From contig OX597825.1 in assembly GCA_951406725.2 (NCBI GenBank), positions 47,740,001 to 47,804,000 on the forward strand: a stretch of DNA of 64,000 nt, read 5' to 3'. The stretch comes from Octopus vulgaris (Eukaryota). A model generated the notes under the pieces. The model worked only from the letters and a program-made list of their open reading frames with translations, made no database searches and had not been told where the DNA came from. Position numbers and translations under genes: made by a program. Shown in pieces: positions 35,908 to 51,349 of the stretch (the first letter of the stretch is position 1; the number at the start of each line of letters is the position of its first letter).

Positions 35908-37252
35908 AACTTTACCATGTTATAATAAACATAATGTAATCATATTGTTACAAACGTTAGCATGTATTAATATACACATTTATATATCATATATATATAT
36001 ATATATATATATATATATCTGATAATTTATAAATAATAATTGTTAAAAACGAAATGATAGTAAACGTTCTAAATGATATTTTCATTGTAACACTGTTACA
36101 TTCAAGTTTTCTCTTCCTCTTCTCCTTTCCGTCATATCTTTGTTTCTTTATCAACTCTTGTCTACGTTCTTACTATTTCTTCTTTTCCTTGTACATTTTT
36201 ATCTCTTGCTTTTCTTTCGAAATTATTTTTGCATAGTGACTGGAATGTTGATATAAGATTTTAATGTTGATTTAAGGAAAAGAATGTCGATTCAGCTAAA
36301 TTCGTTAAAATACTGCTTTTATTTGTTGCTTCTGAATATTGAAAGACGCAGACGATAAACAGAGAGAGAACTATTCGGGTCTTGTAAGCAACACTTTCGA
36401 TGACAACCATTTTGACAGCATATGCCACTAGGGTTCATTCACTCGAATACTAATGTCAGTTAGACTAAATTGACAGCCACAATTGCAGTGACACTCTTAT
36501 GGCTTACTCTTGTAGTTATCTACTACAGTTTCATTATTACATTATTATAAGGTATCCTAATAACAACCTTATTATATTTCTGCAGGGGCTGATGTAAGTG
36601 TTAGTAAGAGATACAATCTCATGTATAAAGGGAGCGGCTTTTTATTGGGCTGCTGTGTCCATAGCCTCAGAATGAATGTAATTTCAGTGAACTAAAATAT
36701 GCTTGTATGGGAGAAAATTTGAAATGGAGGGCAAAAGACAAAACGAGAAAGTCTAAGGAGAGAAAGATCAGGAGAGAACCAGAGAAAATATGTGTGCGCA
36801 ATACTGACAAAAACTGAGACTGACTGACCTATATGCATTCATGCATACATACACACAGGGGGACAGACAGACAAACAGGCAGACAGGCAGACAGACGGAC
36901 AGACATGTATGCATAGGCTTTTGGGCGCTTAATGAGAATTTACTCCACTATCACTCTCCTCGGTCACCTGGAGAAAGCTTGTGATTCTACCTTTGCCTAG
37001 CAGGACAAGTTGAGCTCGGTAGGATATCAACCGCTGTTCGAAGTTCGATCTGTGAAACTTCACTTCCATCTTAACCATCATCCTGGGGCCATGTCCCAGC
37101 AATCTTGCTGTCTTAATCCTTCAAAATCAATGCTCATACCTCATTCCTGATCAGCAACCTGGAGCTTCATGCATACATACATACATACATACATACATAC
37201 ATACATACATACATACATACATACATACATACATACATACATACATACATAC

Positions 37253-37612
37253 CACAGATATAATATCTCATTGAAAATCATAGAAAAAGTGGATACCTAT
37301 GGACAACTGCTTCCAAACTTTCAGCTTCTATATCCAGATTATGAATCCAAATTCATACTAATAGTTTTTGTTAGCAAATGCTTAAAGGACAATCTGGATA
37401 AACTGGGATTTTCAGAAAGAGAAATCGACCGGCTAATTCGTACGTTAAAAGTGCAATCTGTGAGAGGAACAGTAAAAATATACAAGACTTTTCTCAAGTT
37501 CCAAATGTGAATTTGCCTGTGTTAACTACATCCCAAAGATGGAGCCTTGTATCTTTGTTGGAAACCGGCTCCCTGCACAGTGGAAGATTTATAAAATTAA
37601 AAAATAGAAGAG
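37253..37612 (+). mobile_element. 3' fragment of REL retrotransposon family D inside (CATA)n
   Basis: NISLKIIEKVDTYGQLL..LLYPDY..LDKLGFS..QSVRGTVKIYKTFLKF*; 3' motif GGAGCC..GAAACCGGCTC; CATA arrays at 37171-37252 and 37613-37700. Confidence 0.7.
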
Positions 37613-39494
37613 ACATACATACACACACATACATACACACACATACATACATACATACATACATACATACATACATACATACATACATACATACATACAT
37701 TGATGACAGCTATTCATGACCGAGGAAGACCATCACTGACTATTCCCCGAGTAAAATGCCAGCAATACCCGTGAATGAAGTTATTGCACCAGTAATCGGT
37801 TTCACTCTAATTCGCACCCGCAGCTTCTCTGCTCCTTGCGGTGCCTTCCTGCTCGATCAGCCATCGGATAGTCAACTTGCCGGCGATTGCACAACCTAAA
37901 ATTTTAAGTTCAACATGATCTGCATAGCAACTGACATGATCCAGAGGCAAGATGTCCAGTGCCAATGCTATTGTTCGATAGTCGATAAATCTACAGTAGG
38001 TCTGTCCGTCTCTTTGTCCTGATGGATTTCTAGCTACCATCTGCCCCAGATAAGCCTAGTAGGGGTGCCGGTATGGCTCATCTTGGATTCTTGGGGATAA
38101 ATCCTTAATTCATACGCTACAAATGATCATGATATTTGGGACTGTATAAATTTGCAACATATTCTTAGGATTTAAAGGGTGATGGGAAAATGCATTCATT
38201 CTCTCTTTGCTGTCAAGCAGGTAGTCGGTCAAAATTTATTCTAAATTAAAAAAAGAAAATACGTACATACATACATACATACAAACATACATACATAATA
38301 CATATATACATGCATACATACATACATACATGATGGTTAAAACTCGATTTCGAGCAATTTTGTCGCTTGATTATTCTTTTGAAGCGGCACGGGTGTGGCT
38401 TTGAAGTCATGTTAGGGACCTACATCTTTTGCACAAATGTGGCAATGATGGGTGCCTCTTGCAGCAGGTATTCATAGAGTTATGTCCACCGCACCCCGCG
38501 CTCATATATGCCTTCATTCCATGAGGAAAAGTTTTACTGGGTTTACCTTTTTCGGATACGTTCAGCAATAGTATGCAACACATAATAGAGATGTTGAAAA
38601 CCAAGTATTGCCTGTGCCTGTAACTTTTTTTTAAAGTAAGAAAAGTTTCTGGTCAGGAAAATCGCTCTCTCTCTCTCTCTCTCTAAGCAACATATGCATT
38701 TGATCAAATAGAAGAATTAGTTTACTAGTCATCTAGAGAGACATCTAAACAAAGACTAAGAGTATTTCACTCCCATCTGTTGAATGACCGTTGACTCTAA
38801 TGACTTTAGCTGCCATTCCACAGGTTTTGTTTTTCGTCAACCACCTTACTTACCTCTGTTTGTTTGGATTGCGTGTTTAGTCACCGACAGCCCGACCGTG
38901 TGACAAGTTGTATCGGATTACATGTTACCAATAGCGCTAACAGTGACTTCATGTAGGCATACATGCGTGCATGCATACATACATATATGCATACATACAT
39001 ACATACATACATACATACATACATACATACATACATATACACATTCATTAATGAATTCATTCATTGAGGAACACCTGCAACTCTTGTTGAAATTATCCCT
39101 TATAGATTTTCTATAGACGTTATAGCGAACACTGAGTACGCTGCAGTTCTTGATAGACTACTTTTCAGCCGCGTGTGATGAGATTAGATGTGGAATGAGC
39201 CTTTAGAAAAATGAGTCACAGCAAACATCAGGCAAGCCATATACCCCACCATCGATATACGTAAAGAGTAAAAAAGTTAAATGCCGAGAGTACGTTGGTC
39301 TATCTTAATAGCACGCTATCTAAATTTAATACACTTAGGCTCGTGATGAATACAGAAGCTTCAATCGGACATCAAAGGAGCAACGAACATACATACACAC
39401 ACCCACACACATACATATAAACATACAGGCATACATACATACATACATACATACAGACATATCTACATAATTACGCGCGCACGTGTGTGCTGCA

Positions 39495-39815
39495 GATAGG
39501 AACAACTCTTTTAAAAATAGCAAGAAGGAGGCTGCTACTCCTCTATCCTGATTATAGATTTACATTCATACCAATAATCATTGGTGCACTTGGTTATATA
39601 AGCAAATATCTAAGCTACAATCTAGAAAAAGAAAATTTTCAAAGAAAGAAAGAGACCAGCTCATACGAACATTACAGATACAATCTATAAGTAGAACAGT
39701 AAAAATATGCAAGACTTTCAGCGATATGATTATCCAAACTCTGTTGGTGGAGCTATTGTTTCTTTGTTAGAAACCATCTCCCACATTCTAGGTTGAGGTC
39801 TAATGAATATAAAAG
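39495..39815 (+). mobile_element. Second family D-like 3' fragment
   Basis: LLYPDYRFTFIPIIIGALGYISKYL, QSISRTVKICKTF and GGAGCT..GAAACCATCTC; degenerate CATA flanks. Confidence 0.7.
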
Positions 39816-39879
39816 TCATACACCCAGGTGGATGCATACAGGCACATAGAAACACACTCACACACACACACACATACGT

Positions 39880-49577: not shown

Positions 49578-49873
49578 GGAGGTGCAATGGCCCAGTGGTT
49601 AGGGTAGCGGAGTCGCGGTTTCGATTCCCAGGCCGGGCGTTGTGAGTGTTTATTGAGCAAAAACACCTAAAGTTCCACGAGGCTCCGGCAGGGGGTGGTG
49701 GCGATCCCTGCTGTACTCTTTCGCCACAACTTACTCTCACTCTTTCTTCTGTTGGCCTGCTCGCTTAGCCAGCGGGGTGGCGTCATTTGAAGGCTAAAAC
49801 AATGCGAAGTGCATTGTGACCAGCGATGTGCAGCAACATCTGATAGCCTGGTCGGTCACGAGGATCACGGTGA
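49578..49873 (+). mobile_element. tRNA-derived SINE type 2
   Basis: A box TGGCCCAGTGG and B box GGTTTCGATTCC, GC-rich body, TA-repeat tail. Confidence 0.8.
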
Positions 49874-50704
49874 TATATATATATATATATATATATATAT
49901 ATACATATATATACACACACAGAGGAAGGAGAACAAAGAGAGACACCTCATATGGTTGGAGGTGTGACTATATAAATGAAATGTATATATATATATATAT
50001 ATATATATATATAGAGAGAGAGAGAGAGAGAGAGAGAGAGAGAAGAAGAAGAAAGAGTGAGAGAGACGAAGTCATTCAATAGAAAGATATGCCATTATCT
50101 AGATATCATTAAATAGATGCCATAATATAAATGATAGGTACGTCATTACTATAAGTACATTCAATATTATAAAGATAGACTTGTATATTTATCGGTACAT
50201 ATGTGTATGTGTGTGTATCTCTGTTGGCTCCCACCACTTGCTTGACAACCGATATTGGTTTGTTTACGTCCCCACAACTTAGCGTTTCAGTAAATGTGAT
50301 CGATAGAATAAATAACAGGCTTTAAAAAAAGTACCGGGTTCGGCTCGTTCGACTAAAAATTGCTCAAGGCGGTTCCCCCAGCATGGCAGCATTCTAATGT
50401 CTGAAAATATTTGTATTTATCTATTTGTTTTTATTTATTTGTTTTTTATTATTGGACTGTGGTTATGCTGGGGCACCATCTTGAGCAAATCGACTCCGGT
50501 ACTTACATTTAAATTAGGTACTTATTCGTTCTGTCTTTCTTTTGAATCGTTCATTTACAGGGTCGTAAAAAAACTACAATCGACTGCCAAGCGATGATAG
50601 TGAACGAAAACAGCACAAGCACAAACACACACACACACACACACACACACACACACACACACACATGCATATAATATGTGCATATACATAGACATACATG
50701 CATG

Positions 50705-51160
50705 TAGGAAAAGCAGTAAAATGTGACAACCGATGCAGACTTAGTGGAGTTTACATCGAAGATATCACGCAGATCATACCCAGTTGTCTGAAAATGTCAT
50801 CACGATTTATCCACAGATGAGATATGATGTTGTAGCTTGAGAAATTAGGCTTCTCAAAATCAGAAAGGAGAAAGCTAATTCGAAAACTATAGATCGAATC
50901 TATCACTGGAACTGTAAAAATCTGTAAAACTTTCTAGAAGTTTATCATATATATGAACATGTCTAGATATGCAACTATATGCATGAGAATATATACATAA
51001 AACAAAACATACGAATCTGCACATATACATACATACATACATACATACATACATACATACATACATACCCTGTTGTTGATGTTCAAATGAAGGAGCCTGG
51101 GATCTAGATTAGAAACCAGCTCTTTCTCGAGAAATCTTGAAATAAATCTGAATCATGACA
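50705..51160 (+). mobile_element. Third family D-like fragment (internally deleted)
   Basis: CRLSGVYIEDITQIIPSC (degenerate CCHC), LEKLGFS, SITGTVKICKTFL and GGAGCC..GAAACCAGCTC; CATA-type flanks. Confidence 0.65.
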
Positions 51161-51349
51161 TGCGTACATACATGCATACATTTGTCATTATATAGACTCT
51201 TATTACACTCTGTACTCTAACGCTTTACTCTTCAGGCTATTAGTATCACTATACCTAAGCGATATATATATATGTGTGCGTGCGTGTGTGTGTGTTTGTG
51301 TGTATACTCAGAATGATGGTGTTTAATCGGTTCGCGGTTACAATTGAAG

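Follow-up and report, generated by a model that had tools for sequence, protein, structure and literature searches.

Does a lineage of retrotransposons in the octopus insert into a tetranucleotide microsatellite, or are the (CATA)n arrays around its copies made by the elements or met by chance? The question is raised by three fragments in a 64,000-nucleotide stretch of the Octopus vulgaris genome, hereafter the window (contig OX597825.1, positions 47,740,001 to 47,804,000, forward strand; the assembly comprises 2.8 Gb in 227 contigs). The window is microsatellite-dense, with 32–46% GC and about 180 tandem-repeat rows. The fragments, here called f1, f2 and f3 (Table 1), all lie on the plus strand and are mutually homologous (tblastn E 6e-9 to 1e-8; blastn identity 73–75% over 85–119 bp). 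They are decayed 3' ends of R4/Dong-like retrotransposons lacking long terminal repeats (non-LTR elements). An original prediction, made from the letters of the window, had placed them in a separate lineage with a restriction-like endonuclease (RLE), found in (CATA)n in a fixed orientation, and the junction polarity, the fixed 3' register and the branch that the elements form in our trees bear this out. Our reading, to which we assign a probability of roughly 80%, is that these elements sit in (CATA)n in one orientation, likely inserted by target-primed reverse transcription, with an endonuclease that is predicted to act on a repeat already in place, nicking its TATG strand.

Fragments and subfamilies

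The predicted coordinates, strand and CATA flanks were correct: pure arrays surround f1, with unique DNA beyond both of them, degenerate repeats flank f2 and f3, and AAT is absent from the flanks of all three. The accompanying inventory of CATA was right for these flanks but incomplete, a pure array inside the 3' untranslated region (UTR) of f3 having been overlooked. As a control, an AAT array follows 7 of the 8 C-termini of AAT families in the window (GT[AS]H[IV]L type), and CATA follows 0 of 8. The C-terminal peptide said to be shared by the fragments does reflect homology, but it is a composite of three damaged copies and not one sequence: f1 carries LLYPDY, LDKLGFS and GTVKIYKTF, without IPIIIGALG; f2 carries LLYPDY, IPIIIGALG and, after a frameshift, RTVKICKTF; and f3 carries LEKLGFS and GTVKICKTF. 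The 3' motif GGAGC..GAAACC was found as described, exactly three times in the window and always on the plus strand (37541, 39749 and 51092; spacers of 15, 16 and 15 nt).

Searches of the genome revealed at least three CATA-associated subfamilies, C1 (which includes f1), C2 (which includes f3) and C3, the last found inside a C2 locus. First-look candidates numbered 4067 for f1, 4409 for f3 and 1494 for C3. From such thousands, the best 40 candidates were scored in each DNA search, and locus counts refer to best-matching copies rather than to a random draw. The queries were free of CATA flank, except one with about 20 bases of 3' flank that was used for the 5' side only. Identity of f1 to its best 39 other matches was 86–88%, and none of the other genomic matches of f2 exceeded 81%, with 79% for the best match of the fragment itself. 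Median pairwise identity was 92% among C1 3' ends and 94% among those of C2, while C1 5' regions had a median of 86%. Near-full-length copies measure approximately 3.5–3.7 kb. No intact open reading frame (ORF) was found among the 133 copies scored of 39,010 candidates for a 294-residue reverse transcriptase (RT) query; the longest open frame had 660 residues, and most copies contained stops. The CATA elements of the octopus genome are old and broken.

Two further features of the copies were seen. Near-identical C1 5' ends with shared flanks occur at C14:73.4-74.5 Mb (L099, L101, L102, L106, L107 and L116) and at L104, which suggests segmental duplication. Two C2 copies, L258 and L260, contain a (GTA)n run near the N-terminus of the ORF, an internal microsatellite expansion; these runs occupy the identical element position in both copies and were left out of the target counts.

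Target or tail

C1 has AGAAGAG at its 3' end. In 17 of the 29 loci counted (L019, a duplicate of L006, was dropped), ACATAC comes next, and 21 of the 29 have a CATA 8-mer no more than 40 bp away. The terminal 20-mer has 346 exact matches in the whole genome; N-CATA follows 204 of them, where CATA at a fixed place would be expected in 0.64%. In all subfamilies, ACATA stands at a fixed place at the 3' end. A tail would also yield CATA at 3' ends, and the 5' side is therefore decisive. We scored the sense and the antisense repeat separately at 5' junctions, as a CATA 8-mer within 40 bp; two C1 and three C2 reference loci were not counted. Truncation points are spread along more than 3 kb of element sequence, and most have no older copy just upstream. 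Sense CATA was present at 46 of these 74 variable junctions (C1 19/27, C2 15/22, C3 12/25) and antisense CATA at 4 (three in C1, one in C2, none in C3), against a background rate of the 8-mer of 1.2% in the window and 1.9% in far flanks. For an unrelated repeat at the same loci, resembling a short interspersed element (SINE), the counts were 1/24 sense and 3/24 antisense. Full-length 5' ends of C1 read (CATA)n followed by ATGGCGCCGTC in 20 of 21 rows; the exception, L117, was probably matched in error, and two groups of duplicates make up seven of the rows. Three full-length C2 starts are also preceded by a CATA-like repeat. Of 25 relatives found with f2, some of them C1 copies, 14 have sense CATA no further than 220 nt from the ORF end and none has antisense CATA, with a background of 6%. 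Judged from these junction sequences, CATA is most likely the target and not only a tail. Flanks that are random, or that hold CATA solely as a 3' tail, had been named in advance as evidence to the contrary; what we found instead was sense CATA at variable 5' junctions and at full-length 5' ends.

The same junctions bear on three other explanations. It is unlikely that the element makes the repeat itself, with CATA as a slippage-extended 3' tail and the 5' arrays produced by template jumps or by landing beside older tails. The fixed terminal ACATA of every subfamily, the very short 3' flanks of some copies, the internal CATA of C2 and the stacking of copies would all suit such an origin. However, the scattered truncation points abut sense CATA, mostly without an older copy upstream, the full-length 5' ends abut CATA too, and a preference for the tails of other copies would in itself equal CATA targeting. 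We regard it as very unlikely that the target belongs to another element, of RTE type, as its (TATG)n tail or flank, rather than being a free microsatellite. While a 290-bp repeat and a CR1-like frame do adjoin CATA arrays in several loci, those flanks that were read beyond the arrays are mostly unrelated to each other, and f1 has unique DNA past both of its arrays. Random insertion into a microsatellite-rich genome, followed by survival bias, draws on the density of tandem repeats in the window. Yet only 13 of the 251 arrays counted are ACAT arrays, the polarity is 46 versus 4, the register is fixed, and the SINE-like control shows neither of these. Polarity and fixed register together refute random insertion, which we consider extremely improbable.

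The internal CATA of C2 and nesting

CATA-like DNA of 2–203 bp connects the proximal 3' UTR with a distal piece of approximately 115 bp in 17 of the 25 C2 loci; 6 of the 25 have no distal piece, and 2 failed the cut-off. Viewed from the distal pieces, a proximal part lies upstream within 1.5 kb in 24 of 30, and CATA precedes 5 of the 6 solo pieces. At L309 and L310, a C1 copy directly follows the proximal C2 3' UTR, at the site of the internal CATA, and at L312, C3, C2 and C1 are stacked head-to-tail in CATA. From this arrangement, the C2 distal end may have been acquired from a truncated neighbor in the same array. The internal CATA would now serve as a landing site, and priming or truncation there would explain the half-copies.

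Other repeats share these arrays. A repeat of 290 bp, in which no reading frame is evident, lies between CATA arrays at L075:1874-2160, L271, L253 and L254 and may be an RTE-type element that shares the arrays on the opposite strand. At L037:7443-8984 (minus strand), a CR1/L2-like RT frame of 514 residues continues directly from the CATA array downstream of a C1 copy.

Protein architecture

Near-full-length copies represent one broken frame with Myb-like, RT and C-terminal parts; intact relatives have approximately 1150 residues. The RT of a C1 copy matches the Pfam family RVT_1 (E 2e-20). The CxxC..H..C (CCHC), RHD and RPD..D/E endonuclease motifs align with those of AAT-flanked elements. With a profile built from 16 intact relatives, R2 proteins match over positions 372–1144 (E 2e-49), whereas LINE-1 matches the RT only. 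In a predicted model of one relative, P0099 (predicted local distance difference test score, pLDDT, 77), the fold matches come in the same order, R2 being the best for RT and endonuclease. An apurinic endonuclease (APE) was absent: no endonuclease/phosphatase family was found among the 16 relatives. The endonuclease is restriction-like, and an APE in its place, which would have told against the original prediction, was not encountered. Elements of the APE type with a microsatellite tail (RTE, CR1, L2) were rejected as a class for these copies, which have no N-terminal apurinic endonuclease.

The N-terminus aligns with the W..E.N..L..CY pattern of the AAT-flanked rows, and no zinc finger is present. 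In a C1 copy, this part, 74 residues long, is predicted to form three helices. In a VIA comparison covering 198 chains from Foldseek, the best matches of this model were Myb/SANT domains (Z 5.4–4.8, root-mean-square deviation 2.2–2.9; top match Z 5.4, deviation 2.9, 57 residues aligned). The model is consistent with a diverged Myb-like domain. A comparison of the Myb-like and endonuclease domains with the AAT families had been proposed; set against AAT-flanked elements, the Myb-like pattern, the CCHC and the endonuclease motifs all align.

Phylogeny and relatives

The three CATA subfamilies are monophyletic within a long-branched clade (support 100/100, 100/99 and 100 in three trees). The clade stands apart from the AAT families of the window and from eight AAT-flanked metagenome elements. 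The branch lies among R4-like rows, with a root that depends on one long outgroup. As named R4, Dong and Rex6 sequences were not among the rows, membership of the R4 clade rests on architecture and RT similarity. About 30 outside proteins are closer in RT identity (up to 58%) than the AAT families of the window (30–38%). The nearest named rows are proteins of Argonauta hians (51%), the sole named member of the branch, and an uncharacterized Bombyx mori protein (38%). In two marine-metagenome elements with readable flanks, L146 (53% to the query) and, on a different sub-branch, L147, the start is preceded by (TACT)n, equivalent to (CTTA)n, and the 3' UTR of L146 is followed by a short ACTTACT. 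Tetranucleotide targeting is likely a property of this wider branch, not an invention of the octopus genome.

The original prediction had spoken of a switch of target from the AAT families, and in this form it was not supported. The CATA elements occupy a separate clade and two outside members start after (CTTA)n; consequently, the change of target is old. That an AAT-targeting Dong family switched to CATA recently, and in this genome only, is barely credible: the AAT families do share the window and the architecture, and the CATA subfamilies of the octopus are monophyletic, but the outside proteins are nearer, and the CATA elements do not branch from within the AAT-flanked rows. The original prediction gives (CTA)n as the target of Rex6; if this is right, one may speculate that this repeat, (TACA)n and (TACT)n have TAC as a common core.

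Several candidate relatives were set aside. A high-scoring beetle protein, P0194, falls outside the branch. No relative was found in viral contigs, and the ESM Atlas returned only RVT_1 clusters without useful taxa. Eight loci in prokaryote genomes, at 24–36%, are likely eukaryotic contamination and were not used; the same likely applies to R4/Dong-like ORFs within bacterial genome and metagenome-assembled genome records (L276-L281). Some AAT-flanked Dong-like metagenome elements start with tRNA-like heads (L153:84-168, L160:24-100, L161:105-190, L165:10-90), and ARAGORN identifies that of L153 as tRNA-Gly. Such a head could possibly be an RNA polymerase III promoter on an R4/Dong element.

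RNA signals

The 3' motif extends to a bulged stem-loop common to C1, C2, C3 and older copies. The GAGCC/GGCTC stem that had been noticed in f1 proved to be the outer stem of this wider, covarying two-stem structure. Across 25 rows picked from a larger set, with the structure drawn after the data (including C3) had been seen, 84.7% of 275 cells are paired and 28 cells are changed on both sides; none of 500 shuffles scored as high, and slid controls gave 18–55%. In C3 (L075:2225-2520; L284-L308), the 3' UTR is longer and the stem-loop shows compensatory changes.

Dong has a ribozyme like that of hepatitis delta virus (HDV) (PMC3774820). In eight loci of the CATA elements, Rfam gave no 5' ribozyme, only low-scoring microRNA and other chance matches. 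An HDV-like descriptor found none in C1, C2, L146 or L147, and none in four AAT-flanked rows either, a search run without a positive control. Folding of the 5' UTR alignment gave hairpins, yet only 1 of 31 pairs changed on both sides.

How insertion may proceed

In the R2 model, the protein binds a structure at the 3' end of its RNA, nicks the target and primes cDNA synthesis there. By analogy, the protein of the CATA elements would bind the bulged stem-loop approximately 40–70 nt from the RNA 3' end, and its Myb-like and endonuclease domains would read (CATA)n:(TATG)n. The TATG strand would be nicked in a fixed register, so that a 3' end ...GTATGT could prime the cDNA. The 5' end, usually truncated by early stops, would then be joined to upstream CATA. 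In C2, the copy of the target in the 3' UTR would let other copies land inside and allow priming or truncation there. The one-way placement likely arises because the element's own enzyme cuts the CATA repeat. Orientation, register and domains can be read directly in the copies; the binding and nicking steps are inferred, as is an array that was there beforehand.

A number of observations weigh against this picture. Of the 74 5' junctions, 28 failed the strict test, as did 142 of the 346 exact matches at 3' ends. Artefacts explain some of the failures (another repeat interrupts L008 and L013, and L028 continues upstream); further failures are due to shift or decay. In some copies, the 3' flank holds just 5–10 bp of CATA. 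Junctions were read at occupied sites and lie within a repeat, where an earlier array can only be deduced, and in loci sampled as best matches. The Myb Z-scores are middling, with Foldseek E-values above 2, and a Pfam search of the N-terminal part gave nothing. The changes in the stem-loop come from few subfamily-level events, the shuffle control ignores relatedness, and in a first test the outer stem by itself did not score higher than shuffles. The (CTTA)n link consists of two contigs from one marine study, on the 5' side only; four marine-metagenome runs of one study gave no independent 3' junction for L146 or L147, and other branch members (L148, L149, L168, L201) had no clear long array. 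At no locus was the complete arrangement of proximal C2, insert and distal C2 seen.

Known systems and significance

The traits of the R4 clade are present in the CATA elements: a non-LTR RT in a single ORF, CCHC and PD..D/E motifs, a Myb/SANT domain without zinc fingers, and microsatellite-specific insertion. Dong (Bombyx mori; Dong1/2 of an ostracod) has a single ORF with a Myb/SANT-like N-terminus, reported for R4/Dong as diverged, RT and RLE, inserts one way into microsatellites with 5' truncation, and uses (TAA)n in most insects, molluscs and cnidarians (PMC7998251). The CATA elements share this domain layout, the oriented insertion and the 5' truncation, but they use (CATA)n, form a separate RT branch and end in GTVKICKTF, in place of GTAHILR. 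They were rejected as Dong proper, as their repeat is not (TAA)n and the AAT flanks belong to other families, both in the window and at metagenome loci. Rex6 of fish, an R4 family, has an RT and RLE as they do (PMC3728117). Togen, which uses (TG)n, and microsatellite-specific HERO families likewise combine RLE with a microsatellite target, in other clades and with other repeat units (PMC4640811). R2 (R2Tg, R2Bm; PDB 9nl3, 9dou, 8gh6) has the same RT-CCHC-RLE layout and is the best match in sequence and fold; however, its identity to the CATA elements is 16–18%, and it has zinc fingers plus Myb and a 28S rDNA target.

Octopus annotations include a 'Dong-R4' class, with 51 families and 92.7 Mb in O. 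vulgaris in the sections available (PMC13282606; PMC8967140, PMC9115989). The CATA families would probably be filed there, and these sections contain no target analysis that we could find. A tetranucleotide target of R4/Dong was likewise not found in the accessible parts of the literature searched (including PMC13580325, PMC10294476, PMC5786205, PMC5035012); Repbase or Dfam may record one.

What is well supported is a new target variant within an established theme, the targeting of microsatellites by RLE elements. A broader proposal is tentative, and we hold it to be possible rather than probable: the elements would belong to an undescribed, widespread R4-like branch specialized for (TACW)n, in which octopod members would read TACA and those of other marine animals TACT, with one specificity base changed on a conserved frame of Myb and endonuclease, and C2, by carrying its own target in the 3' UTR, would seed landing sites and drive self-nesting and the growth of CATA arrays. 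How RLE retrotransposons read DNA is a current question for gene-insertion tools. Since R4/Dong chooses its sites with just one small Myb-like domain and an endonuclease, the TACA and TACT relatives together with TAA-specific Dong would form a compact natural series for mapping this reading. The elements had been put forward as a natural comparison for determinants of specificity; the lack of an intact copy among those scored, all of them dead, reduces their value at the bench. The findings also bear on the richness of the octopus genome in CATA arrays, in which thousands of copies lie and of which C2 carries the repeat.

Features of the window

Table 1. Features of the CATA-associated fragments, in window coordinates.
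Feature	Position	Strand	Remarks
(CATA)21 array	37168..37252	+	directly 5' of f1; putative upstream half of target
f1	37253..37612	+	5'-truncated 3' end, subfamily C1; ORF tail, stop at 37510, 3' UTR ending AGAAGAG
Bulged stem-loop in 3' UTR of f1	37541..37572	+	outer stem GAGCC/GGCTC; inner stem closes TTGTT loop; predicted RNA recognition signal
(ACAT)23 array	37613..37700	+	directly 3' of f1; putative downstream half of target
Degenerate CATA array	39387..39469	+	ends about 25 bp 5' of f2
f2	39495..39815	+	older, frameshifted 3' end of same lineage; 3' motif at 39749, then only CATAC and decayed repeat
Degenerate CATA flank	50681..50704	+	5' of f3
f3	50705..51160	+	5'-truncated 3' end, subfamily C2; about 350 bp lost internally, near 50836
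(CATA)10, pure	51028..51067	+	inside C2 3' UTR of f3, between ORF end and 3' motif; family feature, not flank
Distal C2 3' UTR of f3	51069..51160	+	stem-loop motif from 51092
Degenerate CATA flank	51161..51181	+	3' of f3

Elsewhere, the window holds many decayed AAT-flanked Dong-like copies of at least two families (6642-10700, plus; 14167-26766, minus; 30632-31800, plus; 57387-59758, minus); in some of them, the ORF holds long expansions of (AAT)n or (GAA)n. Other decayed retroelement frames, Penelope-like and L1/Tx1-like when the ORF list is judged by eye, lie at 32571-33735 (plus), 43030-43401 (minus), 46824-47565 (minus) and 55485-56592 (plus).

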